DNA of 64,000 nt from Rhizodiscina lignyota (GCA_010015805.1 ML978136.1:372001-436000); one strand, 5' to 3'. Counted from the first letter of the stretch, positions 1-22,079 are shown. Notes: generated from the sequence alone by a model not told the origin. Numbers and translations: made by a program.

Positions 1-27
1 GCCTATTGCCTATGACTTTTTTCGACT

Positions 28-44
28 CGGAAATTGTATGTCCG
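28..44. promoter_or_regulatory. CGG-N11-CCG Zn2Cys6-type site upstream of dienelactone hydrolase
   Basis: CGGaaattgtatgtCCG, about 120 nt upstream of ATG 163; same architecture as sites at 6466, 7908, 8047, 13188. Confidence 0.5.
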
Positions 45-162
45 GCCAAAAGATCTCTACGTATTTCATTATCGTAGGACCGCCTTTCATGAGTTCTTTG
101 TTCCGATTTACTGATAGGTATCATTTCAGATCTTTGAGGATATTAAATTGAACGCTGTGATC

Positions 163-1110
163 ATGGCTGCAGTGAGCAAAGCTTGTTGTGTGTACGTTCA
201 ACGTTGTCTCGGTCGCAGAAAATTGCTCACCAGATGTTTGTACTAACAAGAATTTCTGTAAGCATTCCCCCTGTCATATCTCAAGGGTATCAGGCAAAAG
301 GCGAATACAAGACTCTCGATGGTCTGCAAACTTGTACGTTTATTGCTCTCGCACTAATTGAAACAAACGCTAACCGACTGGCAGATATTACTGGCCCACC
401 CGAGGCCGCTCACGCTATTTTAATAATATATGGTATTTACGACCAAATCCACACTTTCAGTCTTGACTTTGCGCTAAATTCTCATCAAAAATGAAGACAT
501 ATTTGGATTTTCTCCTCAGATTCTCCAAGGGGCTGACCTCATGGCTACTGCTGACACCCATCGCGAGTATCGGGTATTCATGCCGGATTTCTTCGAAGGT
601 TCGCCTGCCGATGGAAGTTGGTTTGCATCACAGTCCAATGAAGCACAGCAAAAGGTTGGAAACTTTTTCCAGACAAAAGCTGCACCGCCTCGGACTCTGT
701 CGAAGATCCCTGGAGTGATTGAAGACGCGAACAAGCTCAGCCTGGAAAGCAACACTGTTTTCTCAACCTGGGCAATCATGGGCTATTGCTGGGGAGGAAA
801 AGTAGCCAATCTGACTCTAAAGTCACCCACTGCGTTCAAAGTCGCGGCTCAGCTTCATCCGGCCATGTTGGATCCTGAGGATGCGAAAAACGTTGATGTG
901 CCAATGGTCCTGCTCGCATCTAAGGATGAAGACCAGAATGCTGTCGAAAAATACAAGAACAATCTCCATCCAGTTCACCATGTCGAGACCATCCCAACCC
1001 AAATTCATGGCTGGATGGCGGCTCGGGCGGATCTCAAGGATACCGAAGTTGGCAAAGAGTATCAGAGAGGATATAAGACGGTGCTGAAATTTTTCCACCA
1101 ATACCTGTAG
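163..1110 (+). CDS. Dienelactone hydrolase family protein (multi-exon)
   Basis: Starts MAAVSKACC (ATG 163), short GT-AG introns to ~520; nucleophile motif GYCWGG, QLHPAM, catalytic QIHGWMAARAD. Confidence 0.9.
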
Positions 1111-1321
1111 CATACAAAAGGATTGACGTGAAGGTTTAGAGGGAGGATAATTCATGAATGAAAATAAATTTCAGGCCTAAAGTACTTGAACTCCCACCTG
1201 TTATAGCGCTGCTAATTTCATGATCGTGGTTTTATCACTTTTTCTTAGATTCTTTTCTCTTCTCCTTTTGTTAGACTAAAATCTACTCTGGAAAACATTG
1301 ATCTCGCTACAATAAACTCTT

Positions 1322-1552
1322 CTAATACAACTCATGCTCGAGCTTTGAGACCAAGATCCCGATATACGGCGACAGCTCCACATTGAACAAGTCGCCAGCT
1401 TTCAAACAATCTGGTGTTGGATTCTTTGCTGCTCCTACTCCAGCAGTTGTTCCATAGGAATCACTGTGCCTGCCAGTAAGGTGGCTTCCTTGAGTGAGGA
1501 AGGCAACTAGTTGTGGGATGTTGTGGATCAAATCTGTCAATGGACGCTCTAG
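1322..1552 (-). pseudogene. C-terminal relic of a fumarylacetoacetate-hydrolase (FAH) family gene
   Basis: PLTDLIHNIPQLVAFLTQG..GTTAGVGAAKNP..LKAGDLFNVELSPYIGILVSKLEHE resembles the FAH C-terminus (SQGTTLxAGTVILTGTPxGVG); the intervening ATLLAGTVI is in another frame (compensating frameshifts); no 5' part visible. Confidence 0.75.
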
Positions 1553-1628
1553 GAAGAGTAGTACTGTATACATAAATGCTAAAAAGGTTAGAGAATAGAC
1601 TAGGCCGTTAATAGCTATTATAGCTATG

Positions 1629-2572
1629 CTATAATTCTAAAGTTATTATAAATGGCGAGTTCCGTTTAGAGACCTCCCTCTTTCTACTTGTCATATACGC
1701 AGCATTCACGAAAAGTGTCTGTCTGCCAGGTACGAGATCGCCTTTGCCGTCATCTACACTCGAAAAGGTACATTTCCTTGGGGAAGCAGCGGTGGATAAA
1801 ACCTGTGCGGAGTCGATCTCATCGCTACCATATTTCCATCGCACAAGCTCGATCCCATTACTGACATGATAGTGGCCAAAGACACAGAGCAGAGGTCGTG
1901 CTTGAGCGACTGCTTGGGCTTGCGCAATGCAGCCACGTAGTCGGGGAATGTCAATCCAGTCCAATCGCTTATCCGGAGGGCCATGAGTAGCCCAGATCTG
2001 AACGCCTTGATTCCGATCAGGAGCACTCTTCCAAGCTTTCGCTGCCTCAGGAGACGGCGAAGGACTGTAAGTGAATGCGTAAGGGTTGGTGTTTAGGAAA
2101 TCCGGCTGCGAAGGATTGCCATACACCATTAACGGCAGTGGTTCTCTGGAATCAGGGCGCTTGAAGTACGCTACTGTTCGCGTCTCCTGGTTCAGGTAAT
2201 ATATGCCATGCTCATGAGCTTCTCGAGAGGTGAAAAGCTGAAGCACTGATGCATCGAACGCCTTGTGACCGGGATCCAGACCTAGATCATGATTCCCTCC
2301 AAGTCATTTTAGCCGCCACTGCTGCTAATATTCCCAAGACAAGGGTACTTACCAGCAACTAAGACTTTGACCAGATGAGGTAAACTACGTATCCACTCAA
2401 ACGCTTGATTCATCTCTTTCTGGCCTCCATAGTCTGTGAAGTCGCCCGTGTGGAGCAGAATGTCGCCGTCGGGCACGGCCCCGCGAAAATCCTCGTCATG
2501 GGTATCGGAAATGCACACAATGCGAAGAACATTCGTATCGAAGATGTGTGGACCGCTGCTCTCGGATGACAT
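1629..2572 (-). CDS. Calcineurin-like metallophosphoesterase (MPPED-like), 2 exons
   Basis: CISDTH, LLHTGDFTD, VAG/NHD across an intron at ~2300-2351, THGPP, VFGHYH, FVNAA. Confidence 0.9.
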
Positions 2573-2962
2573 GGTCGTTAAGGGGTGACAGGCTCTCCTC
2601 TTTCGAAGCGGTGTAGGGCACAATGGTCGTGTACAAGGGGGGTGCCGTGGGCACCTCGTTTCTCTTTTGTTCTAGCCCCAGCCTTGTCAACAACGGCAGA
2701 CAGCCGCACGGTAGGATAAGGCGTTGAGTTTGCCTTCTTCCATCAAACCCACGTGTACAAATGTGCGCTGCGTATTGGTGCTTGAAAGTGCATCTGGCTC
2801 AGCTGGATCGCTAAAGTCCCTCACGTTGTGTACTGGAAGAGCGTGCTGTAAAGAGAGGAACGCTTGCGAAAGAGTCACAATGGCAGTATCAATGGCTTGT
2901 GTAGGCCAGGCAAAGCTCTATTTAAGAGACCTCTCATCTGTCATTGTCTTTCCAAAAGGTCC

Positions 2963-4327
2963 ATGGCCCATGAGATTAAAATTTTTTATAACGAAGCCAA
3001 CATTTCGTCCCGCACCATGCCGCCAATACCAAAGCGCGCCTACCGGCTCGTACGCACAGTCTTGCAACCTCGTTCTGCGGTCTCAGACCAAGACTTTGCA
3101 ACGACTACTTTCTCAACTTCGGGAGTTGATCTGCTCGCAATGGTAGTTTCCGATTCTGGTCTTGCAAACTCCGAACCTCAGTGGTGGAACGCTTCGCCGG
3201 TCGGCTGCGTACTCATCGGTCTCCAGCCTCGTGGCGGCTGGCAGATCTTCCAACGCAGCGTGCAATGGGGACAGGACCGATTGGCGCATGCGTTCGGCGT
3301 CAACTGCGAGGACCCTGTGTTATACGCGTACTTCGCTTGCACGATGCGCAACCGCATTGAGCTCTGGGATACACCCTGTCTTTGGAGTCCTATGGAAGGC
3401 GTGACTACCGGCCAGTGGAAACAGAGCGAGTCTTTTAAAGTGAAGAGGCCCACCAAGCTGATCGATGGAAGCAGAGGAGGCCAAGCCTTCATGTGCGAGC
3501 TGCTCAGGCCGGAAGAAGGCAAACATTACAACATAAAAGACCAGTCACAAGCGCAACTATTAAGCGTAATGCTAGTTTCTGCAGGCCTGATGAATGGCAA
3601 GAGTCAGGATGAAATCGAGACGACTATGGATGAGGTCTTCAGCGTCGGTGTTGGCCTTGGTCCGATATTCAACACCTTGAGGATCGCACTCGTGACGGCA
3701 AACATGCTCATCATCGCTTTGATCATCACTGTCTTCTATTCCCTCTGGTGTCACAACCTGTATGGTCGTGCCGTACCTTACATCGTTCAATTATCCTCAG
3801 AGCTCGCTTGGGCAACGGGAGCCACCGGGCTCCTCATGTCAGGCGGTAATCCTCGGGTACGTTTGATTCAGAGGAGGTTGCCGACACACGTTCAGTCTCG
3901 CCTAAGAGGGATGTACAATGGATCTGAGAAGAGTTCCTCAGCATTCGTCGTCAAATTTGGCTCATTGCATGGCTCCGTCTTTACAGCTGACCAGGGCCAA
4001 TGTTCGCTTCCTTATCGTCTCATCGCGCGGATCTGTGCTTGGGACATACGACTTACTAGGACGCTCCGATGGTATCTCGGTGAGTTTTGGTTCGCATTGT
4101 TCCTGCTCATGGGCATCGCTCTTCAGATTGCCGGATCCAAAGTTAGTACCCTCGGATCTGAGGTGATGGGTATTATAGTACTGCTCGCTACCTCCGTCCT
4201 TAGAGGCAGCGGCGTATCGGGATCGGAAGAATGGATGATTCCAAAGTGGAAACGACGAAAGGATACTCGCCCAGGTGCTCAGCTAGTTGGAGCGTTTACG
4301 TCGCGGGCTTCGGCATCTATGGCGTAG
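2963..4327 (+). CDS. Hypothetical multi-pass membrane protein
   Basis: Long intronless ORF (ATG 2963) with about 4 hydrophobic segments in the C-terminal half; no family recognised. Confidence 0.7.
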   Translation: MAHEIKIFYNEANISSRTMPPIPKRAYRLVRTVLQPRSAVSDQDFATTTFSTSGVDLLAMVVSDSGLANSEPQWWNASPVGCVLIGLQPRGGWQIFQRSVQWGQDRLAHAFGVNCEDPVLYAYFACTMRNRIELWDTPCLWSPMEGVTTGQWKQSESFKVKRPTKLIDGSRGGQAFMCELLRPEEGKHYNIKDQSQAQLLSVMLVSAGLMNGKSQDEIETTMDEVFSVGVGLGPIFNTLRIALVTANMLIIALIITVFYSLWCHNLYGRAVPYIVQLSSELAWATGATGLLMSGGNPRVRLIQRRLPTHVQSRLRGMYNGSEKSSSAFVVKFGSLHGSVFTADQGQCSLPYRLIARICAWDIRLTRTLRWYLGEFWFALFLLMGIALQIAGSKVSTLGSEVMGIIVLLATSVLRGSGVSGSEEWMIPKWKRRKDTRPGAQLVGAFTSRASASMA

Positions 4328-5026
4328 CTAGATCTTGTTTTATCAATAGACATACAATGAAATTTCGCGAGATTACAATTTTCTGGGCTAATCGCTGGAT
4401 TATAGGAGAAGATCTCTTGTGAAAATAGATTCGAGCACTAACTAAACGAAAGGCCTTGGATGCGAGATGAAGCGGAAAGCTCTTTGCGTAACATGCATAT
4501 TTTGAGGATATCTTGGGTCAGGTATTGGCATGCATCGTACGAGACCTAGATATGTGCTTATGCTAAGCGATCCCTAAGAATAATACTATACACAGTTGTT
4601 AATGTACTTGCGTTGGGAGCTCATCTTTCGAGATATACTTTTCAAACAGATCAAGTTCAGGGGGTTAAAAAGGGGGTGCCAAGACAAAAGCCATATCTAC
4701 AAAATCTATGATATATCCTCAGAGTTCAATTACTTGTATATTTGTAAGGAACTGAGTCTTGTACTGAGGCGTCGGAGCCGACGACATCAATATCTTGAGA
4801 GATATTCTGACAAATTCCGCTGGAGTCATTCAGCACAAAATCTCCATAAACACAGGATAGCTCGGTGAACACCTCTAAACACGAACAATCGTTGCAATTA
4901 TTCAGCTGAAGAGCCACGGCTCGGTAGAAGGAGATCTTCTTGCAAACTGTGGGGTCGATACGGACTGTCCACTGTAGCCAGTTTCCAACTGCAGAGACAT
5001 TCTCGTATGATTAAGCTACAATTTGA

Positions 5027-6079
5027 CTACAACAGAGTCTTCATGACAGTCTCCATATCCTGAGCCGGCAGTTCCAGCAAATCATTCATAACCTTTCCAG
5101 CCCTATCAAAGTCATTCCCGCCACGGATGTCCATGTTGGCATACCAGATAATGGTGCCCACTTCGCTGGGGTCACCTCTCTCAAGCTTTTCGTATGCCCC
5201 TTTCACTGCAGCATCGAGATCGACCTCTTCGATGATCCACTTTTCTCCAGTCAGCTCCTCAAAATTTTGCAGGAGCTCTGACATGGTTGTCGTGAAGCTG
5301 CGGACATAAACAATTTTGTTTGCTGTCTTTGGTGCATGAGCGGGCGACAATGCTTGAGCAACGGCCAGTCCAATCATATCAAGGGTCGTGGTGGAGAATG
5401 TCACATCCTTGTACTTTGGATAGATCGTGGCTGTCTTCGTGGCGGTGTTGAATGGAATGAAACCAACTTTGATTCCCCTACAGGATTACCACTTAGCATC
5501 ACAGGATACGTAGGAGATCTGGAGAATTACCAGTCAAAGAAAAAGCCGTTGAAGAAGGCAGTCCATTCTATTTGATCCTTTTTGCTGTCCAAGTATTTTC
5601 GTACCTTGTCCTTCTGGCTCCAGAAAGTGAAGAGTTGGAGGCCAACCTCATTGCTCGTGTCGGAACCAAATTCTGAAGGAACAAAACGCTTCACTCCAGC
5701 ATCGATCGCTGCATCAACTATTCGAATTTGGTCCGGAATTGCGTGTCCGGCAACGGTTGAGATGACGACATCTTTGCCTTTGAACACGGCCACAAGCGAG
5801 TCGTGGCTATAGTCCGTCTTCAATTGTTCGACTCCTACGGGTGGCTTGTATGTGGATGATTCGCGAGAGATAACTGAGACGTTATATCCATGTGGGGATT
5901 GTATCAGACCATTAACCACTGCAGGACTTGGATTTTCTTAGTGTTCAAGTTACGCTCCATTCGGGAAAGTGAATACCTGAGATTTCCTCCTCCCTGCCAA
6001 AGTATGTTAGCTTAAATCTGTAAATGTCGAGTTCGAGTCTTAAACGTACACCAATGACAGCAATGTTTTTGAAAGACAT
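5027..6079 (-). CDS. NmrA-like / isoflavone-reductase-like NAD(P)-dependent reductase
   Basis: MSFKNIAVIG + 17-nt micro-exon GGGNL; DAAIDAGVKRFVPSEFG; WTAFFNGFFFDW; 3 GT-AG introns. Confidence 0.9.
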
Positions 6080-6249
6080 CAAGAAAAAACTTAGCGGGGA
6101 TAATTCTAACGATTGTTTTTCTTGTTGAGCTGCGACTAATGGACGAAAGCCCGACCATCCAGACATTTATAAAGGTATCATACCATCAATGTTTTTCTGT
6201 TTTACTAATCAAAGATCTTGACGCCTGCATTAAAAAGGGGATAGATACT

Positions 6250-6260
6250 CGGATATAATA
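6250..6260 (+). promoter_or_regulatory. CGGATATAATA half-site in the NmrA/Luz-like divergent promoter
   Basis: Exact 11-mer also present on the reverse strand at 6472-6482 and 7914-7924. Confidence 0.5.
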
Positions 6261-6465
6261 GAATTCGTATCAAGAAATGGAATACCATGCCCAGTCGCGG
6301 CGGAGAATCAGTATATCAGGCCTACTTCGTGGATTCCCAGGTCTCTGCGGACGGGAAAACGTCCTCTTTGAACCCCTGCTTCTGGCGGGGCCAGCGGGTA
6401 GCGGGTGGTGGCGGGATGGAATGGTCGGGTCCAGGGTGTTTCGTCAACTCCGTCTTTCCAGCAAC

Positions 6466-6482
6466 TGGATATATTATATCCG
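6466..6482. promoter_or_regulatory. TGG-N11-CCG near-palindromic Zn2Cys6-type site
   Basis: tGGATATAtTATATCCG, perfect 7-bp inverted repeat; ~160 nt upstream of the Luz-like ATG; TATAAA at ~6570. Confidence 0.55.
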
Positions 6483-6639
6483 ACAGCGAAAATTGGAGCT
6501 TTCTCCACACTAAGGTGACGTTGTGACTTGAACTTCTGATATCTCTCCGAGGCTCCACTCTGTTCTAGGTATAAACGCCACCCGAAGCCCAGTGCTCTTG
6601 GTGACTTGGTCTTTCAGATCCTCCGCAATTTCCTCCGCA

Positions 6640-7631
6640 ATGACATCTTCCTCCGTTTCCTCTACCGTACGCTCCATGTTCTCCGCCCTAGATGGCAACT
6701 TTGTCTGGGGAAAAGATTCTTTGCTCTCCAGGAGCCTTGGCAGCAGCACCAGCAGGATCATCAATCCCAAATCTGCAGCATTCCAATCCCTTATTGTTCT
6801 TCTCTCGGCAGCTGGAGCTTATGCTGCATATCGCGACTATCGCAGCTACATAAGCCTAGGACCTGGCGGTGCCCCTCACAATGTTATAGGATGGTTCTTT
6901 GTATCCATGTTATTGTCTCCCCTGGGGCAAAATATGTTGAGTCTTAAAGTATACGACCACTGCACAGACAATACAAGTATCATTGGCGATATCCCAATAC
7001 GTCAGGGAAGCAGACCCATCATTGCTCGACATGCCGTGCCACAACGACAGGTTAATCAAGTCCCAGACAAAGAAATTACTATGGTGTGCCTCCTGAAGCT
7101 TGAGTTCCATTCGCAGAGGCTGATTTTTCGCAGGCGCTGGTGGCTTCATTCAATGAATTTTACGAGAAAAACAAACATCTTCTCAAACTTGCACCCTCAC
7201 TCCACGAGAAGCGCGGAAATGCACTCTTCCTCGCAGATACAATCGCAGGCAATCAACCGATCGCTGACGAAATGCTCCGGGAGGTTGCACACATCCATAA
7301 ATTAGGAGATTATTCTCTCCACATAGCTCTACCGCCTCAAGACTGTAAGTTTCACATCTTTCTCACTCCACATATCGACCCTTTGTTCTCCAGAATTTAC
7401 AGTGTAAATATCGCAGGCAAGAAGGTTGTCCGCGCCGGCTGGGGCCAACGACATGCTCTGTCTGGTGGAACGATATTAGCTCGTATTGGTATCAAAGGCT
7501 TCTATCTGCCAGTTCAGTACACCCTCATCTATTCGCCCCGCAATCGAGCAGAGATCGAAGTCGTCATGAAACTTGTCCGAGCAAGCACGGCTTACCTTGC
7601 AAATGTCCCACTTGAAACCATTGAACCTTGA
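6640..7631 (+). CDS. Fungal luciferase (Luz)-like / DUF5519 family protein, 3 exons
   Basis: N-terminal TM then RDYRSYISLGPGGAPHN, IPIRQGSRP..PQRQ..Q, EVAHIHKLGDYSLHIALPPQDCK..GWGQRHALSG, LIYSPRN..E..VV; introns 7084-7133 and 7345-7416. Confidence 0.85.
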
Positions 7632-7907
7632 GAATCTCTAAGAGATGGACATGTACAATACCTAAAAGATGCACGACGAGAACTGTCGGACCGCATGAAT
7701 GGAATCATATGTTGAACGGTTGATTCAATGTACCCCTTGTTGTATATGCTCCCTGGACCTAGGGTTATGTTGTTGATACGTGCGAAACTATATCTAGCTT
7801 AAGCAGGCTTGTAGCTAATTGGTTGTCGGTTCGCGACCGGTCGGTCATGCCTGAGCTTGAAACATCGGGGTGCTCCATAGCCAGCATATAAGAGCTTAAA
7901 TGTACTC

Positions 7908-7924
7908 CGGCGATATTATATCCG
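7908..7924. promoter_or_regulatory. CGG-N11-CCG site upstream of PEBP gene
   Basis: CGGcgatattatatCCG. Confidence 0.55.
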
Positions 7925-8016
7925 CAAGAACACGCATTGCATCATTTGACTGACAGCGTTTGTAATTATTCTTCCAATTGCTCCGAGATGCAATTACGGC
8001 CGAATCGACGCGTTTG

Positions 8017-8063
8017 TTCATTGCTCGGATGCATTTATTCATTGCTCGGATGTAACAATACCG
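8017..8063. promoter_or_regulatory. Direct repeat TTCATTGCTCGGATG x2; second copy forms CGG-N11-CCG (8047-8063)
   Basis: Copies at 8017-8031 and 8038-8052; CGGatgtaacaataCCG. Confidence 0.55.
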
Positions 8064-8160
8064 GTTGGTCTACTTAGATATAATAGATGGCTATTTCGCT
8101 GGAGGCATAACGTAGATTTAATTCACTCTCTTCAACCAGAAAAGGAGCAAAGGAAACAAA

Positions 8161-8975
8161 ATGCATTCTCTTAAGAAGGCAATTCTCTCTTTCTCTATTT
8201 TGGGCCATGTCCTCGCGCAGACTCCTTCCGGAATATCTCCAGCCACGAAACAGAGTCTCAGTGTCGAATATGGCAGCACAAACTTTACCGAGGGTCAATT
8301 ACTCACTAAAAATCGTATGTGTCATCTGACTCGAATTTTTGCATATTTTGCATATTTTGAAGAGTCTACTGACACCTTTTTGCAAAACCAGTTGTCGCTG
8401 AGCAGCCTTCGATTGGTACCTTTGAGTACATGACCGGCACATACACCGTGATCTTGGTTGATCTTGATGCAGCTTATCAGGACAAGCGTACTGAGGTTCT
8501 GCATTGGCTTCAAACAGACCTCGTCGTATCTCGCACTTCTTCGCAGAACGTCTATCCGTTGGGAGCATCTCCAACAAACAATGTCTCCGCACTCGCTCCT
8601 TACTATCCCCCCGGTCCACCGCTGGAAGTCCCCGCGCACCCTCATCGCTACACACTACTTTTATTTAGCCAGGTACACGGCGCAGAGATTACCATCTCTA
8701 GTGCCCTTAATCAGACGCTGACGAACCGTGTGGGATTCAATCTCAGCGATTTTGCGGTGAATTCAGGGATCGGCCCATTGGCTGCTTCCAAATATTTCAC
8801 CCTCGTCAACACCACATCGAGTTCCTCTTCGGCTTCACCCAGTGGAACAGGCGGGACAGCTGTCGCATCAGCTTCTAGCTCACCGTCCTCTTCCTCGGCT
8901 GCCGACGTCGGGCCTTATTTCGCGTCAAACTTGATCGGGCTTGTGCTTTTGGGGATCGCGTATGTCTGTCTCTGA
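8161..8975 (+). CDS. Secreted, probably GPI-anchored PEBP-family protein
   Basis: Signal peptide MHSLKKAILSFSILGHVLA; YTVILVDLD, LHWLQ, PYYPPGPP..HPHRYTLLLF; Ser-rich stalk and hydrophobic C-terminal tail; one intron. Confidence 0.85.
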
Positions 8976-9700
8976 CGAACCACGGTGGCCTCAGATTCAG
9001 GTCGTCAGGAAGAGTTGGAACAGAATGACTGTAGAGGTCTGCATAATTTATCAGTCGACGGTGCCTCTCGAAATGCAAGGTCATCTGGGATGAGAAGAGT
9101 TGGTGTTGCTTCAGTCTTTCTGTAATATTAGTTTCGAAAAGCAAGTATAAGTTGGTGAGATAGACCGTTAGAAATATGACTACTCCTTAGGTCAATTACT
9201 TTTGTACGGAGTAGGGGAGGCAGCAATAGAAAAGATCTCGGCGCTATCAAAATGAAGAGCCAGGGGGGAATTTCGCCTTAACGCTATTCGCTGAACGCTG
9301 CTAACCATCTGTGGGAGGAGGGAGTGGAGCTGCATAGATTGATTGGTGCAAATCCCTGCTAGCGTGCATCAAACACGAAAATCTCGGAAGCTGCCTGTCA
9401 GCACGTGACTACGCGTGGCCGGGCCGCTAAGGCCTAAGGAGCCCCTGCAGGCCTTCAAATACATAACTAGCTACTTACTTCGTACGTCTGAGTCCTCACT
9501 CACGTAGTCATCTCTACTTGCGCTATTGTAGCTTTTTCGTCCTTTTCATTCAAAGGCCTTGATTAGAAATCTTAGACATTGCACTCTCCGCCTCGGAAAT
9601 CACGTGCTTGACAAATTACTCTGTACCTACCCAGCTCGATTTCATATTCAACTCGCTCGTTCGATTCCGTATTCGTGTTCCAGTGTGCGGTTTATTCAAC

Positions 9701-12219
9701 ATGGATGTTTCGCATGAAATTCGTCTCAAAAATGATGCTCGAGCTCTTCTTGCAGAAGCTTCGACAGCAGCAGGCATGCGCAATCGACCCCAGCTTTCAT
9801 GTACACCTTGCAGACAACGAAAGCGAGTGTCCCATCCTTGCTTCTACTCGGGTTTGCATTGAATGCGAGCACTAACTAATGCTTGCACAGACTGAAATGT
9901 GATAGGGGAAGGCCTTGTGAGAACTGTGTCAAGAGAGAAGAACTCGACACCTGCATCTACCCAAGATACGCCAAACGCAGCCTCCGCACTCCGGACAAGG
10001 CAAAGGAGCGAATCAACAAACTTGAAAACTTGTTTATGGAGCTGTCTAAAGGGAATGATAATTTCCCCAGCTCTGATAAATTGAATACTGGAGATGAGTC
10101 TCTGGTGAGGGATCAGAGATCCATGAACGGGAGTGAAATTTCTCCAAGATCTCTGTGTACAGACACATCTAATTCCACAACGCCTCTGAAATGGAAAGAT
10201 ATTCTCGAAGACGTAAGCAGATACGATATATGGATTCTTCAGTAAATCTTCCGCGCAGTTAATATTTGGCAGATTACAGAAATTAAAGAGTACTTCGAAG
10301 GACACGAACTCGACCTCAAACAAGACGTTGATAAACTTCAAACTACGAAGAGCGACCTGCAACTTGCGGATCTTCTTTGTGGAATACACTGCAAGCAAGA
10401 TGTGTCTCTCTTGATCGCAGGCCTTCCCGAACGGCCTCTGGTCGATAGACTGGTTGCGAACTACTTCGACTACTCGTTTATGTTCAGACGTATGTGGCTC
10501 TGTGCATAGTGTGGCTCATTATTCCACTGAATTGACCAAATTCCACAGCCGTTATCCATCCCAAGCAATTCCAGCGAGAGGTACGCATATGTATCCTGCT
10601 CTAAACACTGTACGTCAGTGATACTGACCTCTACCATTTCAGTATTCTCGGTTCTGGAAATCACCATCAACCGTTTCCAAAGTGTGGCTGGGGCTTTTAT
10701 TCGCTATGATTCGACTATCTGCCGAGACCCTTCGAAATGTGTCGAGCAATGCCTCACCTGAACTTCTCCTGTCCGACGAGACGATCTCAATCTTTCGAAC
10801 TTGCGCCGTTCAATGCCTAGCATTGGAAGATTATACCAACGGCAATATCCACGGCCTGCAAGGCCTTCTCACACACCTCGAGTCCGAATACATGCGTTCC
10901 TTGGATTCACAGGCGAACTTGTGGATTCTAACTGGAACGACTGTCCGTATTGCCCTCATGAATGGCTTGCACCGAGACCCAAGCCACTATGCAAACCTCT
11001 CTCCTTTTGAGTCAGAAATGCGTCGCCGTCTGTGGGTGTGTGTTGTTCACTGCGATGTGCTGCTCTCGTTCCAGATGGGTTTGCCAGCTATGATCCCAAC
11101 AGCGCAGACGGATACGAGTCTGCCAAGGAATCTTCGAGAGGATGATTTTGATGAAGACATGGGAGGACTGCCACCAAGTAGGCCAATTGATGATGCAACT
11201 ACCATATCATTTTATCTGGTGAAGGCGCCTTTGGTCGAAGTGTTCGGAAGGGTCGCATCGCATCTGCAAACCGTGCATATGAGCGATGAGCTAATGAAAA
11301 CGCTAGATGCGGAGTTACAGGCTGCATGGGATGGGGTACCTGCATACTATCGAGTACGTCCAATTGACGAATCACTGATTGACCCGGCGTACATGATCAT
11401 GCGACGATACGCGGTGAGCCAGATCCACCTGACCGCGGTGTGTATCCTGCATCGAAAGGGATTAGTGCTTGCCCGATCCCACGAACAGTTCAACTGGTCG
11501 CGGAAAGCTTGTATGGACGGGGCCATGACGCTACTGGGATATCAAGCTGTCAGACATCGAGAAACTCAACCGGGCGGACGACTCTCTGGTCTCCGAAGCA
11601 TGATGATGTCTATCACAAAAAACGACTATCTCCTAGCCGCAATGCTGGTCTGCCTGGATGTGCACCTCACCGTAGCTCAGCCGTCGAGCATTTGCACTGA
11701 TCTCGCCATCTGGGGCTGGGATCGTACCGAGGAGATGTTGAAAGCCCTGGAGACTTCGTATTATATTTGGAAAGAGTATAGTCAAGAATCAGCCGAAGCA
11801 TTCAAGGCGAGTGAAGCTTTAGCTGCCATGCTGGAAAAACTCCGACCCGAATTCGGTATTACCACCAAATACGGGTCTTCTGCTTCCCTCGGCCAAATCC
11901 CTTTTCAATTTGATGACTTTGGTATGCTTAAACTGTTTCCATGTTCGATTTTGACCCTTGTCTCATATTTCTCGTAGTGCCTACCGGAACGACCATTGAG
12001 TCTGGGAATGGAGACAACACGTCGTATGGTGCAGACATGCCGCTATCGCAGATGTTTGTTGAGCCAGAGAGCATTGATTGGGTACGTGGAAAATTGAGCT
12101 TACATCCAAAAATGTTCAGATCTAACTTCTGTGACTCATATCAGGACGAGCTCGATCGCTATTTCATCAATTGCAGCCCTCCTGTCAATAGCTGGATGAA
12201 CCCCACAGACATGACTTAA
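9701..12219 (+). CDS. Zn(II)2Cys6 transcription factor with fungal-specific TF domain
   Basis: SCTPCRQRK/LKCDRGRPCENCVKREELDTC; GLHRDPSHY..FESEMRRRLW; C-terminal IDW/DELDRYF; several introns, the first GC-AG (9823-9890). Confidence 0.92.
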
Positions 12220-12247
12220 TTTGTATGGCATTTTGTTACATCTCTGT

Positions 12248-12891
12248 TCAGAGTTGTGCAATGAATTCTTTCCGTGTTTCTAGCTCTTTGATCAAGCCTG
12301 CAAAGTCCTCATCACCGCTATCCGCCAACTGTTTCCATGCCTGGAGATTCGATTTCAGGTACACGTGGTCTTCGCCGGGCTAGGGAGTTATGAAAGGATC
12401 AGCAAAAGAGTCTCATATAAGCAGAGTTCGCATCCTTTGCAACGGGAGCGCAACATAAATGCCATGGGAAAATGGAGAACAGGTGGAAGTGAGCAAAACC
12501 ATACCATTGGAACTCTAAAGCCGACCTCCAAGCCTGCTGCAAGACCACCGAGGACGAACACGCCTCTCAATGAGCGTTGAGAGTGCGTTTCCTTCGGTCC
12601 ACCTACATCCACCACCTCGTTCCAAACTTCCGACAGCTCCTCGCACAGCTGCTCGAATTGAGCTGCGGTCCGAGCCCCGCCTGCTCGGGCGTGAACAAAA
12701 ATAGCGTTAAATGCAGCCCTACGTTTACCAGCGACGTAAATCTGGCGCTGGCCGACATCTGTAAAGGCAACGTTTATAAAAAGCGACGGTGTCGTGAATT
12801 TCCCGGAGTGTAGATACGTAATCTTCTCTGCCAGGGCGTCCTTTTGGGCGTCGGTCAGAGAGATGCAGTGGTGGATGTCGTAGAAGGGCAT
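12248..12891 (-). CDS. Pro1 tautomerase (cis-CaaD / oxalocrotonate-tautomerase-like), 2 exons
   Basis: M-P-FYDIHH..QKDALAEKITYLHSGKFTTPSLFINVAF; intron 12380-12504; exon 2 PGEDHVYLKSNLQAWKQLADSGDEDF..EFIAQL*. Confidence 0.85.
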
Positions 12892-13187
12892 CTTGGTCTT
12901 GGTTTGCGGAACGGTGCCACACAGGCGGGATTATCGTGGACAGATTGTCAGATGAGCACCAAGTTGGAATTAAATAGCTCCAGTCGTGAGACTCTTCGAG
13001 GAGGGCAGCAGATGCCAACGGGTAGAGAGACGTGTAATCCGGGTATTCACAGTGTCCGAAAGACCCATCTTCATCGCAACAAGATGCTCAAACGGCTGCG
13101 TGTCTAAGTCTTCACGGCCGTATCACTGAAGTAGAGAGGGCGAAATGTGGATAGAGAACTCTTTGTAGACTAGACTCAGGTTCCTGT

Positions 13188-13204
13188 CGGACATAATGAA
13201 TCCG
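13188..13204. promoter_or_regulatory. CGG-N11-CCG site upstream of tautomerase
   Basis: CGGacataatgaatCCG, ~300 nt upstream of the minus-strand ATG 12891. Confidence 0.5.
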
Positions 13205-13379
13205 AGTGGGGAGGAGCACAATAGCTTAGCAAGAAACTCGGGATCGAGACTACATGGAGAATTTTCTATTAGGTCTGCATGGCTGGTGCCGTATGGAGTT
13301 CTTCGGATTTTGCAGGTTGTCGAGCGTGCGTTACGGCGAAGCACTGTGCATAGGGTCTCATCGTTTCTCTTGAGCGGAG

Positions 13380-13960
13380 TTAATATCTCAACTGAAAGAT
13401 GACATCTTCTCTATTCAAAAATCCACACCTCCTTTTCAACATCTCCGTCATCACCACGTCGTTCGATCCGACTCCTAAGGTCGAGTCTCTCATTGGGTCC
13501 GCTTGTTACGAACACTTTCGCATCAAATTCTCCGTCTCCTTTCTCGTACGCCTCCTCACATCCCTTGACCGTAGCTTTGCCTACTATCCAGGGCATTCCT
13601 GTCGTTGCAAAGCTCGCCCAAGACCTGGACATCCAGTCCTTCAACTCGAAGTCCGCTTGGCTGGGCCGAATCGTATCCATTGCATCGTTGTAAATCGATA
13701 AATTGCCAAATAGGAATGCGAAGTCCGATGTGTGTATCACGCCTAGGCCTGACAGTCCGATCGATGTAAGATATTCGTCAAGAATCGTTTGGTTATGCAG
13801 GTAGGGATACTCAGAGTTAGAGGCTGACATGGCCGACCCAAAGTAGAATGTTGGACATGTGAAGATGATCATGAAAGATTTAGGCGCAGCGGTAGAACTC
13901 TACGGAGAGACTGGCCTAGGGATTTGCAGTGAGAGGAGAGTTGATGCAGACGGGGAGCTT
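13380..13960 (-). pseudogene. Type-B carboxylesterase C-terminal relic
   Basis: EFYRCA*IFHD / IFTCP..LGVIHTSDFAFLFGN..SRSWASFATTG / LKRRCGFLNREDVIFQLRY*; stops at 13916-13918 and 13880-13882 plus frameshifts; no N-terminal half visible. Confidence 0.8.
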
Positions 13961-14890
13961 AAAACCTGGCAGGAAGTCTTGATGAGTCGACGAGGAGGCT
14001 CAGGCGAAAGTCGCCAAAGCAAGGGAAGGTCGTCAGTTCATGATGAGAACTTAGAAAAAAAATTAATAATTGTTGAACAAATTAACTAGTACTCAGAAGT
14101 GAGTCGAGAGTGACTCTGACGTATAGCAATGCTACAGTGGTGGATAAAACAAATGCTTTTCTTTGGACAGATTCTCCTGTCCGGCAGCGTAATTATTGCC
14201 TGGGGGCAAAGACGCCCTCCCGCTCCAGTCTCTACTACACGCAATGAAAGGTTTACGCGTATGATGTCGCAAATCTTGCTGAGAGTTCTCTTGTGCGCTC
14301 GAGTTCTTCAATGATGCGTTTGCGCAAAGCAGGAGGCTTGCCAGTCAGACTGGCGCACAAGATAGAGGACTGGAACACCGACTCTATTTCGGACTCCATA
14401 CGTGCCATCTTTTCTCCTTCTATGGGCTCGATGCCGAAGAAGAGATTTAGAACCTTCCGCGCAGCTCGGCCTGCAAGAATAATCCTTGTGGTTGCGCGTT
14501 TCAGATTGATGACATCGTGGATTTTCTGGTGAGGCTGGTGTGGTGGAGAGTCCCAACCACCAGGAACCAGCCTCCCTCCAACCTTTGCATTAACGTCCCA
14601 TAAATACACCACGACAACAGGCATCATGAGTTCGCATTCGAAAATCAGTTACACTGCATCTTGCAGAACTGTCCCTCCAATTTTCAAGCCTCGAACTCGT
14701 CATCGCTGCCGGCTACGACATCCCGTGTAGCGGTCTCCTCGCATTTACCAGTGTTTCAACTACCAGCGAATAGAGCTGTACAGCCGGGCTGTGAGCCAGG
14801 CACATCTGCGAGCGTTCCAGTTACAGCTGAACGATCATCTGCATAAACCTGCCCGGCAGCTGATCCGAATTTGGAGTAATCTCTGACCAG

Positions 14891-16676: not shown

Positions 16677-19600
16677 ATGGCTTTTGGTGTTGGGTTTAGA
16701 GACATTGTCACGGCTTTGAAGATAATTAAAGAGCTCGGAGAAGCATTTGTGAATTCTCCAAAGGAGTACACAGCCATTTCAAACGCGTGAGTCGAAACAT
16801 TACAGCTATCATATGAGATGCGGAATGTTCATTTACCTGCATAGGCTCAAGGATCTCTCCGCTGTACTCGATAACATTAAAAACGTAGTCGCAAGCTCGA
16901 AACGAGGCCTCCCTTCGCAGCAGGAAAGTCAGCTGCAGAAGATCGCGACTGAGTGTCGCACTACACTTCAAGACCTACAAGTGAAGCTCAGCAGACATGA
17001 GAGCTTGGCATCGAGCTCTGCTCCTCAGGAGAACTTGGCAGATCGTATTCGCAACGCAAGCCGGAGAACATACCACAGGTTCACTTGGTCTTCGAGGGAT
17101 ATTTCCGAATGGCGAGACCGAATAACTCTGAACGTCACGATTCTGAACGCTTTTATGAACCAACTGACTCAGTATGTGGGCATCTCTTTGTCTTTCGGAA
17201 ACACTGCTGTCTTGTTTGCCGGAATCTCATGCCTTATTTCGACTGATTAACTTTAGGCAAGGTGTAAACCAACTCCGCAATCATCCGATGGTCAGCAACG
17301 CAACAGCCGTAAGGACGCTATTATCGAGTGGCTATGCCAGACAAACCATGCATCGTTCCACAGAAACATCATTCGAAACAAGAAGACAGGCACCGGAGAA
17401 TGGTTTCTAAATCCGAAAGAGCCAAGTCAGAGTAAATACCTCGAATGGGTGAAGGAGAGCAAACAAATCTTGTTTTGCGAAGGAATTCCAGGAGCCGGCA
17501 AAACAATGATATCTGTAATGGTCATCGACGACCTCGAGAACCAGTTTCAGGCCGATACAGACGTCAACATTGCATATATCTATTGCGGCTACCAATGCCT
17601 GCAGCAAGAACACACGCCTGACGACTTTATTTCCAACATTCTGGGTCAACTTCTTCAACGCCAATCCAGCCTGCCCGAAGGTATCGAGAAGCTTTACGAG
17701 AAGCATCGTCACCATCGAACACGACCCGGGATTGATGAGATCGGAGGAGCAGTACAGTCTACACTTCAACTCTACATGCGTAGCTTCATCATACTTGACG
17801 CTCTGGATGAGTACCATGCTTTGAGCAATGGCGATTTGAGGACGTTTCTGACACAGATACTGGCCCTAGGAAGTGCAACATCTGTAAATATTCTTGCTAC
17901 GTCGCGGCCCATTGAGGATATCAGGTCTCAGTTCGATGGCGCATGTCTGGTTCAAGAAATTCGAGCCCATAAAGATGATCTATTGCATTACGTTCATGAA
18001 CGGATTCTCGAACTTCTGAGAGGGAGGTTTAAGGACCTACCGGATCTGGAGATGGATATAGTTACCTGCGTCTCAGATGCTGCTGCAGGCATGTGAGTCA
18101 GCCCGCCTGCGAATCTTCCTCGGCGTCCTAGGCTAACTTTTCTGTGTCAGGTTTCTCCTTCCAAAGTTACAGATGGATTACCTCGCACTCAAACCAACTG
18201 TAGCACACATCAGGCGGGCCCCGAAGAACATGCCGAAGGGTGATACAGCCTTGGATGAGACATATTCCAGGGCCTGGACGACGATAGAAAGCCACCCCGA
18301 CGAAGACACTCGCGAAATTGCGAAACAGCTACTCTGCTGGATTACACATGCTCGGCGTGAACTCTCTGTTGTGGAGCTTCAGCATGCTGTTGCTGTGCAG
18401 CAAGCTCGTGCTTTCGACCCCGAAATTTCTGAGTTTGACGAGGAATTCCTTCCACCAGAAGCACTCTTTGGCTCAATCTGCGCGGGTTTGGTCACGGTGG
18501 ACCCTGAGAGCGATACAATTCGATTGGTTCACTATACGTTAAGAGAATATTTCCATCGTACGAACAAGTTCCAACACGCACAGGTCGATATTGCAACCAC
18601 ATGCATTATCTATCTATCGTTCGATACGTTTTCAGAACCCACAGAAACAAATGGCCGTGCTAGCGAGCGCCCACTGACACATGCCATTCTTCGTTTGCAA
18701 TGCCATCCATTTTACGACTATGCGGCAGAGAACTGGGGCTACCATGTTCAGGGCAGTCACTTAGAACAAGAAGATCTTCTCATTGATTTCCTAAGCAATG
18801 ATGCCAAGCTACAAAGCAGTCTGCGGCCTGCTTTGAGTCACGGTTATTTTCCGATATCCATATACGACAGATCCGCAGACAGTATCACCCCAGCACACGT
18901 TGCGGCATATTTTGGGCTCTCGGAAACATTGAAAAATCTTTTTAGCAATGGATATGATCCAGATACACGCACATTTGACGGCCAATCTCCATTAGCGTGG
19001 GTTGCTTTCAACGGGCAAGCCGAAACGGTCCAGGCGCTTCTCGAGCCAAGTATCGGCATAAATCCTAATTCACAAGACGACGAATGCCGGACTCCACTAT
19101 CATTGGCTGCCTCTAGAAGTCATGAGAATGTGGTCAAAGTCTTCTAGGCATGTGGGGATCGCGTTGATGTAGAATCCAGAGATGAGTGGGGAGAAACACC
19201 GCTCTACCACGCAGCGAGACATGGTCATCAGGAAATTGTGCATCTACTTCTGCAGTATGGTGTAGACCCAGACCCAAGAGATATAGACCTCCAATCGGCG
19301 CTCTCATGCGCAGCGTCAAGGGGTCATGAGGAAATTGTTGAGCTGCTTCTACAGTATGGTGCGGATCCAGACTCAAGAGATATGAATGACTGAACGCCGC
19401 TCTGGCATGCAGCAGAAGGAGGTTATAAGGAGACCGCGAGTGTGCTCCTACGTCATGGTGTCGACCCGGACTCGAGAGATTCCACCGGACAATCCCCCCT
19501 CTCATGTGCAGCGGAACAAGCTCACAAGGATGTTGTGGATCTGCTCCTACAGCGTGGTGTAGACCCAGACTCGAGGGATGACACGGGACAATCCCCCCTT

Positions 19601-20068
19601 TCGTGGGCCGCGAGCCTTCAATGGTTACAGCGAGAAGTAACAGCTGACGTTATAGCGCTTTTACTGCAGCAAAATGATGTCGACCCATGCCCCAAGGACA
19701 AAAAGGGTCAAACTCCACTGCACAAGGCATCCATAGAGAGTTGGACAGAGGCAGTCGAAGTACTGCTCAGAGAGAAAAGGGTAGATCCAAATGTCCGCGA
19801 CAACAACGGTCGAACTCCAATCTTTTACGCCACACAAGCTCCTTCGTATACAAAAGCGTCAAGATCCGTGAAGACAGTGGAGGCTCTGCTCAAGCATGAT
19901 GGAATTGACCTCGACTCAAAAGACGAGACAGGAAGTACCGTTCTCGACTACGCCAGAGCTGAATACGTTCAGTATGAGAGAGGTCAATTTCACTACAGAA
20001 TCCCAGAGGTTGTTGCACTTTTAGAAGCACATCTTCAGCGTACCCAAAACTCTTTTCTGCTGAAGTAA
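16677..20068 (+). pseudogene. NLR-like STAND gene: HeLo-like N-terminus + NACHT + ankyrin repeats, with premature stops
   Basis: MAFGVGFRDIV.. N-domain; GTGEWFL; Walker A GIPGAGKT; Walker B FIILDALDE; GM/FLL; RLVHYTLREYF; ankyrin TPLx repeats; in-frame TAG 19145-19147 and TGA 19391-19393. Confidence 0.85.
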
Positions 20069-20549
20069 GGTGTGTGCATATCCTGCGGCATGCCTGCGTG
20101 TCATTATTGTCGTGCCCGATACACTCATCCGAAGGCCAAACTCATTAGGCTAATACGACAGTAACCCACAACGAGATTCACTTAGATGGGTTATGCACAG
20201 TCTAATCAGGCTTTGGGTGTATGGGACCGTGGTGAAATAGACTCTGCCATCTATATATACTTCTTCCTCTCAGTCACGTATATGCTTTAGTTCTCACCGG
20301 CGCTCGTACCTTTGTGTAACATTATGCCTGCGCTCATTGGCGTCCGCTATCAGCGCACTGCACGAACACATCAGAACCTCACTGAAATTTGATTTTAGCA
20401 TATCTTTAGCATTTGGGGAATTCACGATCCTTAGGGAAATCACTCCGAAGGGTGAAACAATGTGAAGTTGTTAGCTCACGGGAGAATTAGCTACTTATCC
20501 ATTCTACATTCATATATCCCCCTTGCTGAACTACGGCTTTGAAAGTACG

Positions 20550-22079
20550 ATGTCCACAGCTGTGAAAACGGATAAGCAAAATGAACTTCAAGCTCAAACA
20601 ACGCAACTTCGGCGACCGCACGCACAGCCGACGATTCTGGCAGTCACTCCCACACCTTCCACCTTGGTGTCTAATACACAAGCGGAGTTGTATTCGAGAC
20701 TGATTTTGCTATCTCTGCTCTCAAAATACAAAGACAGGCCTACCGAGCGCGATGCAGCCGGAGAGAAACAAAGTGAACTGATTAAATATCGACGGGATTT
20801 CCTTGACAGATTGTCTTATCTGTGTGATATCGACAAGTTTGGAAGTACTGTGACAGCAGCGGCATTGCAGAAGGTACCAGCATTCAATATCCTGTGGTTG
20901 GCTGCCAATGAAAGCTTCCATCCTGGAGTCGAAGAGTTTGTCCATCGGATTATACATCACGTCAAGAGTGTAACACCCGAATCACGGCATGACGTCGAAG
21001 ATACGATGCTGGAGGACGCTGTGAAAATGGGTATGCCGAGACTGAGATTCTATCGGGATAAAATGGTCGATGCGGCCATTAAGTGTCGGGATGACTTGAA
21101 ACAATACATGCCAGATGATCAAGGTGAGCTATACACAGTAATACGATCGAGAAATGTACTGAAATTAGAAGCATTGAAATTGCGCGCATGGCTGAGGAAG
21201 ATGAAAAAGTTGGGCATGAAGCATTTAGGTTCGAAGAAAGTCGTGCTTATGATCGAACTGATCAAAAGATGTGAAAAGGAGAGCGATGTTTACATGCCTT
21301 ACTTACGTGAGAGAGATGTTTCTTTCCCTGGCAACGAAACCAACGGAAATTGCTATGCGGACATGAAGCACTTCGTAGCTCGGTTGAGGGCGCATGTCTA
21401 CTCTGTGAAAGACGTTGTCAAAGCCTCACTCTTAACGCCGTCTCTCCGAAAGATTGGCGAGATCAAAGTCGAACCATCGTCGGAACCCAGAAATGCCATT
21501 CTTCCAGACAGATACCTGAATCCTTATCGGACCTTCACGCGTTGTCTGGCTGAAGAAATAGCACCGATGCGAATAAGTGTGTTGCTCAAATCAGTCACGG
21601 AACGTGAGGCGAGTCTCGATTTCGATTCCGCGTCAAGGAAACACTCACAAATAACCAACACAAATACATTCATAACCCGTGTTCATGCAGAGATCCTTCT
21701 TGCCGACCTCTTCAGCCGGCGAAACTTTGACTTTGTCGACGACGACAAGTATATAGGCTGCAGCAAGCCCGCGTGTTACTGCTGTGCTCGATACTTCGAA
21801 TCTCACCCGAAGACCAAGTTCGTTAGGCCGGCAACCCACAACAAGATTCTACTCGGATGGCGTTGTCCGGAGCCTAATCAAGATTTAGACATAAGGGGTC
21901 GTGGCAAAAAGACCATTGAGCAGATTGAGCGAACCATGAATTGGACAGTGCGACAGCATTTGATGGAGAAACTGGAGGAAGGTGGAGAGCCAATTGAATT
22001 TCATTGGCAGTCGACTAATGGATCTGTGCGAGATCTGAGTATTTTGTCTGGAAGGGTGATACCATTCCGTGGACGATGA
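20550..22079 (+). CDS. OTT_1508-like nucleic-acid/nucleotide deaminase
   Basis: FLDRLSYLCD..GSTVTAAAL..WLAAN; RVHAEILL..YIGCSKPACYCC..THNKI..WR; probable in-frame 45-nt intron near 21124. Confidence 0.85.
   Translation: MSTAVKTDKQNELQAQTTQLRRPHAQPTILAVTPTPSTLVSNTQAELYSRLILLSLLSKYKDRPTERDAAGEKQSELIKYRRDFLDRLSYLCDIDKFGSTVTAAALQKVPAFNILWLAANESFHPGVEEFVHRIIHHVKSVTPESRHDVEDTMLEDAVKMGMPRLRFYRDKMVDAAIKCRDDLKQYMPDDQGELYTVIRSRNVLKLEALKLRAWLRKMKKLGMKHLGSKKVVLMIELIKRCEKESDVYMPYLRERDVSFPGNETNGNCYADMKHFVARLRAHVYSVKDVVKASLLTPSLRKIGEIKVEPSSEPRNAILPDRYLNPYRTFTRCLAEEIAPMRISVLLKSVTEREASLDFDSASRKHSQITNTNTFITRVHAEILLADLFSRRNFDFVDDDKYIGCSKPACYCCARYFESHPKTKFVRPATHNKILLGWRCPEPNQDLDIRGRGKKTIEQIERTMNWTVRQHLMEKLEEGGEPIEFHWQSTNGSVRDLSILSGRVIPFRGR

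Follow-up and report, generated by a model that had tools for sequence, protein, structure and literature searches.

A Luz-like (PF17648) gene of Rhizodiscina lignyota in a conserved core with a reductase and a Zn2Cys6 factor: a candidate catabolic or detoxifying cluster

What a relative of the fungal luciferase Luz does in an ascomycete, amid genes that give no hint of luminescence, is the question raised by a locus of the Dothideomycete Rhizodiscina lignyota. The window that we analysed is a stretch of 64,000 nucleotides (GCA_010015805.1 ML978136.1:372001-436000, numbered here from its first letter), and the locus occupies positions 28 to 13,960. A preliminary description had proposed there an inducible pyrone- or phenolic-degrading or detoxifying cluster with its own Zn2Cys6 regulator. 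All eight features that it named, a dienelactone hydrolase (DLH), a relic of the FAH family, an NmrA-like reductase, a Luz-like gene, a PEBP, a Zn2Cys6 transcription factor, a tautomerase with Pro1 and a carboxylesterase relic, were detected by Pfam among the 17 stop-to-stop open reading frames (ORFs) of positions 1-14,000, 10 of which gave matches; two further genes, absent from that description, sit between the DLH and NmrA-like genes. Its remark that the window holds no polyketide synthase or flavin hydroxylase was confirmed by ORF scans over the 64 kb, which also found no nonribosomal peptide synthetase, terpene synthase or cytochrome P450. We consider it plausible, with a probability of about 0.5, that the locus is a catabolic or detoxifying cluster in which a three-gene core and a factor-driven regulon, acting through a 17-bp promoter element, would form a module converting a phenolic-derived compound.

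The core comprises the NmrA-like reductase gene, the PF17648 gene divergent from it (start codons at 6079 and 6640) and the Zn2Cys6 factor gene, and these are three consecutive genes in the unrelated Cladophialophora immunda, where their products carry consecutive accessions (OQV11222-OQV11224) on one contig of 16,122 bp. Identity to the C. immunda proteins is 79% for the reductase (CLAIMM_15085, OQV11222; 234 of 297 aligned residues), 75% for the Luz-like protein (CLAIMM_15086, OQV11223; 141 of 187 aligned residues) and 82% over the large exon of the factor (OQV11224; 366 of 449). For this core the proposed cluster with its own regulator is borne out, and linkage in another genome, set beforehand as the test on which the proposal could fail, is retained in C. 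immunda. By comparison with the C. immunda protein, the factor is about 745 aa long. The deposited R. lignyota model (634 aa) leaves out parts of an uninterrupted ORF for which the C. immunda protein (750 aa) has aligned counterparts, and is probably mis-spliced.

The nearest relative of all three core genes is in C. immunda, a Eurotiomycete black yeast of the order Chaetothyriales. In a tree of 34 rows picked from 120 listed relatives, the factor pairs with its C. immunda counterpart (SH-aLRT 99) inside a clade of nine rows (100), shared otherwise with four Exophiala rows, Knufia and two rows without a name. The three rows from Dothideomycetes are placed far away. The reductase likewise pairs with C. 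immunda (100) in a tree of 24 rows, within a four-row clade that includes two Eurotiales, Talaromyces rugulosus and Thermoascus. Close Luz-like relatives that carry a name are all Eurotiomycetes: C. psammophila (59% identity, partial), Rasamsonia (52%), T. marneffei (45%) and P. coprophilum (43%). The nearest relatives of the core are thus Eurotiomycetes, not Dothideomycetes, in both trees and among the named Luz-like matches, a pattern in favour of the block having been transferred between Rhizodiscina and a Chaetothyriales-like lineage.

The Luz-like gene belongs to the PF17648 family by its profile match and its conserved residues. Its spliced translation (exons 6640-7083, 7134-7344 and 7417-7631; GT-AG introns 7084-7133 and 7345-7416) equals the deposited R. 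lignyota protein P0001 exactly over 289 aa, and the match to the PF17648 'Luciferase domain' profile scores 59.7 bits against a cut-off of 23.7. In a 30-sequence alignment, numbered on the window protein, it keeps the family-invariant residues R121, P134, R136, S170, H203, H211, W227 and P259 and the near-invariant E198, H201, D207, S209, H231 and R260. Identity to the Luz-family proteins of two non-luminous Agaricales, Fistulina and Cylindrobasidium, is about 38-39%. A membrane helix is predicted at residues 43-72, over a hydrophobic stretch near the N-terminus; an N-terminal transmembrane helix is reported for nnLuz in the accessible portion of PMC6294908. The structure model is confident (predicted local distance difference score 88.4, predicted template modelling score 0.81). 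No solved sequence relative was found for the Luz-like profile, a Foldseek search of the PDB with the model found nothing at E<=1e-3, and the only VIA-align matches to the C-terminal domain were small alpha/beta proteins (DUF419, Z 9.1, root-mean-square deviation 2.9 over 114 residues; YjbR, Z 6.5; frataxin, Z 5.2-5.4). The fold of the Luz-like protein therefore indicates no mechanism.

The reductase is closest to a plant family, the PIP (isoflavone-reductase-like) NADPH reductases, which act in phenylpropanoid metabolism. Its coding pieces lie at approximately 6079-6050, 5993-5979, 5928-5530 and 5476-5030, and the window contains all residues of the deposited R. lignyota protein P0008. Among solved structures the reductase is closest to isoeugenol synthase (E 1.4e-13), A622 isoflavone-reductase homologues, pinoresinol reductases and eugenol synthase. 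When aligned with PIP enzymes, the protein shows, besides its NmrA-type Rossmann domain, the features by which that family is recognised, the VKRFxPSEFG motif and one lysine, which has a catalytic role in PIP reductases. NmrA itself is a redox-sensing regulator of AreA.

Five genes of the locus may also be joined by a promoter element. The element that had been described as common to four intergenic regions was recovered there as six related 17-bp sites (A-F in Table 1), of CGG-N11-CCG type with an AT-rich spacer and the core CGGAYATAAT, which lie 98-403 bp upstream of the start codons of the DLH, NmrA-like, Luz-like, PEBP and tautomerase genes; no site was found ahead of the metallophosphoesterase gene, the 454-aa ORF or the Zn2Cys6 factor gene. 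Across the window, plain CGG-N11-CCG is no commoner than chance would give (14 matches for 11.5 expected, a number reached by 25 of 100 shuffles). Five of these 14 matches fall in the first 14 kb, and four of the five (28, 7908, 8047 and 13188) are intergenic and have the AT-rich spacer in common. CGGAYRTA occurs 12 times for 4.1 expected, seven times in the first 14 kb, and none of 100 shuffles reaches 12, while all four exact copies of CGGAYATAAT in the 64 kb are intergenic and within this region's promoters; the core pattern was refined after the sites had been inspected, and the statistics of both patterns overstate their significance. An unbiased k-mer count found two 11-mers present at least three times in 1-14 kb, a number reached by 3 of 200 shuffles; one is CGGATATAATA and the other belongs to a local tandem duplication. 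With matrices built on five sites and asked to recover the sixth, five of the six sites ranked 5-7 among about 128,000 positions and site B ranked 33; the best match beyond the region scored 13.2, against 18.4-24.8 within it. Because of the refinement after inspection, we regard the motif as moderate support for a regulon of the NmrA-like, Luz-like, DLH, tautomerase and PEBP genes. A short tandem duplication, TCATTGCTCGGATG (8018-8063), lies just upstream of the PEBP gene, and site E begins in its second copy.

The gene neighbourhoods of the family are more consistent in prokaryotes than in fungi. The family is large, with 900 representatives (50% clustering) found by phmmer at E<=1e-3. Among 14 named control genomes PF17648 was matched in Haloferax volcanii only, and pattern-scan matches also came from metagenome-assembled genomes of Crenarchaeota and Heimdallarchaeota; to judge from these matches, the family extends into archaea. 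We scanned the flanks of 47 prokaryotic loci, the best-scoring ones; some are related to one another, and the tallies do not represent independent events. A reductase or dehydrogenase of NAD(P)H, flavin or F420 type was present in 19 of the 47 and an aromatic ring-cleaving or related enzyme in eight. LigB lies immediately upstream of PF17648 in four of the 47 (L038, L076, L077 and L078). In two metagenomic loci (L030 and L031) a LysR gene is followed by a short-chain dehydrogenase/reductase gene and then, 4 bp downstream, by PF17648, and L030 also has a protocatechuate 3,4-dioxygenase and a flavin hydroxylase; in L009 a Gfo/Idh/MocA gene overlaps a full-length form of PF17648. The eleven loci from genomes include one in which the upstream LigB overlaps PF17648 (L038), and others with a Rieske oxygenase upstream (L043), an FAH gene adjacent (L044), a zinc-dependent alcohol dehydrogenase downstream (L045) or a divergent F420H2 quinone reductase (L037). 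A pirin gene is the neighbour in L082, and HxlR, DoxX and OsmC genes are among the further bacterial neighbours.

Two bacterial phyla were sampled more broadly. In Actinomycetota, PF17648 scored above the cut-off in 71 of 401 sampled genomes and at E<=1e-3 in 74, which include 11 genomes flagged as unpublished (63 matches without those). In the published genomes, nine of 22 loci have FMN_red, PNPOx, Pyr_redox_2 or Bac_luciferase within 1.5 kb, and MarR occurs in four of the 22 and Mem_trans in six. A recurrent set in L046, L050, L052, L053, L060 and L069, consisting of Mem_trans, a short PF17648 protein (~110 aa), a PNPOx-like protein, MarR and an NADPH-dependent FMN reductase, looks like a conserved small-molecule stress operon. 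In Bacteroidota the family was found in 10 of 401 genomes; five of the 10 loci have an NmrA-like or NAD_binding_10 gene within 1.5 kb, three have LigB immediately upstream, and two of the LigB-bearing loci have the gene order NAD_binding_10, LigB, PF17648, 4HBT, TetR in common. Another Bacteroidota locus reads MarR, PF17648, pirin. The operons of L076, L077, L078 and L038, with NAD_binding_10 or DoxX, LigB, PF17648 and a 4HBT thioesterase, together with TetR, constitute a putative, undescribed extradiol-cleavage cassette that contains a luciferase-family gene. Given this adjacency of prokaryotic PF17648 to reductases and ring-cleavage genes, a role in the conversion of phenolics or pyrones fits.

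Coupling these observations, we propose the following scheme. The Zn2Cys6 factor would bind the 17-bp CGG-N11-CCG element with its AT-rich spacer and turn on the reductase, Luz-like, DLH, tautomerase and PEBP genes. To judge from the enzyme families and the prokaryotic neighbourhoods, the substrate may be a phenolic-derived quinonoid, enol-lactone or alpha-pyrone, and the reductase would form or consume an electron-rich enol or hydroquinone-type intermediate. The Luz-like enzyme would then add O2 and open or oxidise the ring, as Luz does on 3-hydroxyhispidin, and its product would pass to DLH for lactone hydrolysis and to the tautomerase for an enol-keto shift. As the accessible text of PMC6294908 describes it, Luz adds O2 to a 3-hydroxy-alpha-pyrone to give caffeylpyruvate, an acylpyruvate that is cleaved by an FAH-family enzyme. 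Because PF17648 recurs beside LigB and NAD(P) enzymes, the most economical reading is that a pyrone, enol-lactone or hydroquinone-type intermediate undergoes an O2-dependent step; that the window protein oxygenates an alpha-pyrone in particular we only infer, by analogy with Luz.

A number of points weigh against a catabolic or detoxifying cluster of the full extent. The FAH fragment covers only profile positions 150-211 of 214, about 65 C-terminal residues, the metallophosphoesterase gene has its 3' end where the upstream part would lie, and no second piece was found at the locus with a full-length bacterial FAH as query; the carboxylesterase fragment covers positions 389-475 of 515, and one piece only (13606-13866) matches a full-length homologue. 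Both are decayed, dead fragments with no role in a present-day pathway. Two unrelated genes separate DLH from the core and so interrupt the proposed 14-kb unit, and DLH, the tautomerase and PEBP are joined to the core by the motif alone. In no fungal or prokaryotic neighbourhood scanned does any of the three lie beside a Luz-like gene, and in 34 metagenomic Luz-like loci the window's other cluster proteins had no relative (tblastn, E<0.01), with the sole exception of a weak carboxylesterase match. In nine of about 10 fungal-like lineages with context, grouped by identical match statistics, the Luz-like gene has no adjacent reductase, and in several it sits amid housekeeping genes; in one (L019) a carboxylesterase gene lies immediately upstream of it. 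Neither Foldseek nor VIA-align recognised a known oxygenase fold in the Luz-like model. The public C. immunda Luz-like model (CLAIMM_15086, P0002) has 187 aa, is about 100 residues short and is without R121, P134 and R136, so that the annotation may be wrong or the gene damaged; the contig itself is short and may be foreign to the C. immunda assembly, and the GC and GC3 (third codon position) contents of the core genes are no different from those of their neighbours. To these are added the partial relatedness of the prokaryotic loci and the late refinement of the motif. Of the 14-kb cluster as preliminarily described, it is the three-gene core that stands as a conserved unit, while its outer enzymes lack such support and two of them are dead; the pyrone or phenolic reading retains the prokaryotic context in its favour.

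Several of these points also fit another explanation, in which there is only a co-inherited, possibly horizontally transferred, block of three genes that take part in no common pathway, the 14-kb neighbourhood of common fungal enzyme families having arisen by chance in a decaying accessory region and the motif being coincidental or the site of another factor. The two dead fragments and two unrelated genes within the region, the failure of the other cluster genes to recur beside Luz-like genes, the chance level of plain CGG-N11-CCG across the window and the post hoc definition of the motif core all agree with it. We nevertheless think it unlikely. The divergent arrangement of reductase and Luz-like genes recurs with unrelated reductases in several bacterial phyla and in one fungal metagenome lineage (L008), where an NAD_binding_10 gene unrelated in sequence to the window reductase is divergent from the Luz-like gene and a metallophosphoesterase is also present. 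Further, five of the six left-out motif sites were the best matches outside the training set in 64 kb, and every exact CGGAYATAAT copy belongs to a promoter of this region.

It is rather improbable that the locus is instead a biosynthetic or tailoring mini-cluster, whose PIP-type reductase and Luz-like oxygenase act on a phenylpropanoid or polyketide from a pathway encoded elsewhere in the genome. In plants, the PIP family works in biosynthesis, and the horizontal spread of a small cluster with its pathway regulator is generally typical of fungal secondary metabolism; Luz, too, sits in a biosynthetic cluster according to the part of PMC6294908 that is accessible. Yet the window lacks the synthases and tailoring oxygenases listed above, and the prokaryotic partners of the family (LigB, protocatechuate dioxygenase, FMN reductase, and MarR, TetR and HxlR regulators) are catabolic or detoxifying. 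Least probable of all is that the NmrA-like protein is a redox-sensing regulator modulating the neighbouring Zn2Cys6 factor and that the Luz-like membrane protein serves in sensing or binding and is no oxygenase, a view that takes up the Pfam family NmrA, the nearby transcription factor gene and the likeness of the Luz-like C-terminal domain to non-enzymatic alpha/beta proteins (DUF419, YjbR, frataxin), but that has to contend with a reductase nearest catalytic PIP enzymes, with PSEFG motif and lysine aligned, and with an nnLuz that is a proven enzyme (PMC6294908, accessible part) and whose family-invariant residues the window protein keeps in full.

Table 1. Genes, gene fragments and candidate regulatory sites of the locus, by position in the window.
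Feature	Position	Strand	Basis or location
Motif site A	28..44		CGG-N11-CCG, AT-rich spacer; 119-135 bp upstream of DLH start codon
DLH-family gene	163..1110	+	Pfam DLH on ORF 478-1110, 40 bits (cut-off 21)
FAH C-terminal fragment	1322..1636	-	Pfam FAA_hydrolase, 19.9 bits (under cut-off 23.9)
Calcineurin-like metallophosphoesterase gene	1629..2572	-	Pfam Metallophos, 24.5 bits
454-aa ORF, no Pfam family	2963..4327	+	ORF
NmrA-like NAD(P)H reductase gene, 297 aa	5027..6079	-	Pfam NmrA on ORF 5527-5937, 66.1 bits
Motif site B (CGGATATAAT core, weak 3' half)	6250..6266	+	NmrA/Luz bidirectional promoter
Motif site C (CGGATATAATATATCCA, CGG-N11-CCA)	6466..6482	-	158-174 bp upstream of Luz-like start codon
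Luz-like gene (PF17648), 289 aa	6640..7631	+	Pfam on ORF 7104-7631, 59.7 bits
Motif site D (CGGATATAATATCGCCG)	7908..7924	-	237-253 bp upstream of PEBP start codon
Motif site E (CGGATGTAACAATACCG)	8047..8063	+	98-114 bp upstream of PEBP start codon
PEBP-family gene	8161..8975	+	Pfam PBP on ORF 8373-8975, 45.3 bits
Zn2Cys6 factor gene	9701..12219	+	Pfam Zn_clus and Fungal_trans, ORFs 9880-11977
Tautomerase_3 gene	12248..12891	-	Pfam on ORF 12388-12930, 45.8 bits
Motif site F (CGGACATAATGAATCCG)	13188..13204	+	297-313 bp upstream of tautomerase start codon
Carboxylesterase C-terminal fragment	13411..13899	-	Pfam COesterase, 24.1 bits (under cut-off 27)

The remaining genes of the locus are of more variable standing (Table 1). 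The DLH gene appears intact, with about three short introns in its 5' part (exon structure judged by eye), and its translation covers profile positions 39-217 of 217 and contains GYCWGG; the nucleophile motif of dienelactone hydrolases is G-x-C-x-G. The metallophosphoesterase gene, which has no motif site, and the 454-aa ORF, which has neither a Pfam family nor a motif site, are probably outside the cluster. Relatives of the latter in the ESM Atlas are hypothetical proteins of Ascomycota only; it has membrane-like segments, and its structure model is of low confidence. The PEBP gene has one intron; its product begins with a signal-peptide-like stretch, and the C-terminus is rich in Ser and closes with a hydrophobic tail. 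The gene seems to be missing from the deposited annotation, where the Luz-like and factor accessions are consecutive (KAF2093893 and KAF2093894). The tautomerase begins MPFYD, with Pro1 present, and matches profile positions 1-92 of 138, as expected for a member of its family; exon 1 spans 12891-12505, and a candidate exon 2 (12379-12248), placed from GT-AG sites only, is not confirmed by Pfam. Transposon-like repeats were not found within 1-16 kb. The right flank is unlike the cluster, with a NACHT-ankyrin protein, a deaminase, CTLH, BMT5, BRE1 and a Myb protein at 14-32 kb and AtuA, UCH, ribosomal protein L5 and an RRM protein at 32-64 kb. Within it, an NLR-like gene (NPHP3_N/NACHT with ankyrin repeats; 17257-20068) adjoins an OTT_1508-like deaminase gene (20475-22079), and the AtuA-family (acyclic terpene utilisation) gene at 34104-35422 is split across two ORFs by an intron or frameshift.

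The fungal luciferase is still presented without described homologues in the accessible parts of PMC6294908 and PMC11766655, and our literature search returned no paper on PF17648, DUF5519 or 'luciferase domain-containing' proteins and no described function for non-luminous members. What the family does apart from luminescence, presumably its ancestral function, could be tested directly in two culturable ascomycetes through a conserved module that comes with its own regulator, and likewise in the compact bacterial operons (NmrA-like, LigB, PF17648, thioesterase, TetR). The cluster of this wood-dwelling ascomycete hints at what the family did before light production, and PF17648 systems could provide a new type of oxygenase for lignin-derived aromatics or pyrones. 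As a tentative and rather doubtful generalisation, PF17648, so far known only as the family of the mushroom luciferase, might be an ancient fungal, bacterial and archaeal family that uses O2 on alpha-pyrones or enol-lactones and has reductases of NAD(P)H, flavin or F420 type as partners in aromatic ring cleavage and quinone detoxification; bioluminescence might then have recruited such a catabolic enzyme, and the R. lignyota module might be a transferable cassette from a Chaetothyriales-like donor.

Four known systems invite comparison. With the bioluminescence cluster of Agaricales, luz/h3h/hisps/cph (PMC6294908, accessible part), the locus has in common the PF17648 family, a predicted N-terminal membrane helix, the small size of the cluster and an FAH-family sequence nearby. 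It differs in its ascomycete host, in its partners (a PIP-type reductase and a Zn2Cys6 factor), in an FAH that is a dead fragment, and in the lack of a polyketide synthase or flavin hydroxylase: the linkage of luz to h3h and hisps is absent, with no hispidin synthase or hispidin-3-hydroxylase among the scanned ORFs of the 64 kb. In protocatechuate 4,5-cleavage by LigAB/PmdAB and LigC/PmdC, as outlined in the available text of PMC11489326, LigAB-type ring cleavage is followed by a Gfo/Idh/MocA-type NAD(P)+ dehydrogenase to give the alpha-pyrone 2-pyrone-4,6-dicarboxylate. The likeness lies in ring cleavage and an NAD(P) enzyme leading to an alpha-pyrone that needs processing, and in bacterial PF17648 genes directly after LigB (L038, L076-L078) or Gfo/Idh/MocA (L009); the window differs in having no LigB-type gene, with no LigB match in any scanned ORF. 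There, the known enzyme that acts on the pyrone is a hydrolase and does not belong to PF17648. The quinate (qa/qut) cluster is a fungal catabolic cluster with a pathway-specific Zn2Cys6 activator and CGG-based sites in the promoters of its members, and the locus resembles it in adjacent enzyme genes, a Zn2Cys6 factor of its own and candidate CGG-based promoter sites, though its enzyme set is undescribed and no transporter was recognised. Finally, MhqR, YodB and CatR of Bacillus subtilis are MarR- or HxlR-type repressors of quinone and catechol stress regulons, of which, to our knowledge, PF17648 is no described member. Whereas the fungal module uses a Zn2Cys6 factor, bacterial PF17648 genes recall those regulons in sitting with MarR, HxlR, TetR, DoxX, OsmC, FMN reductase and ring-cleavage dioxygenase genes.

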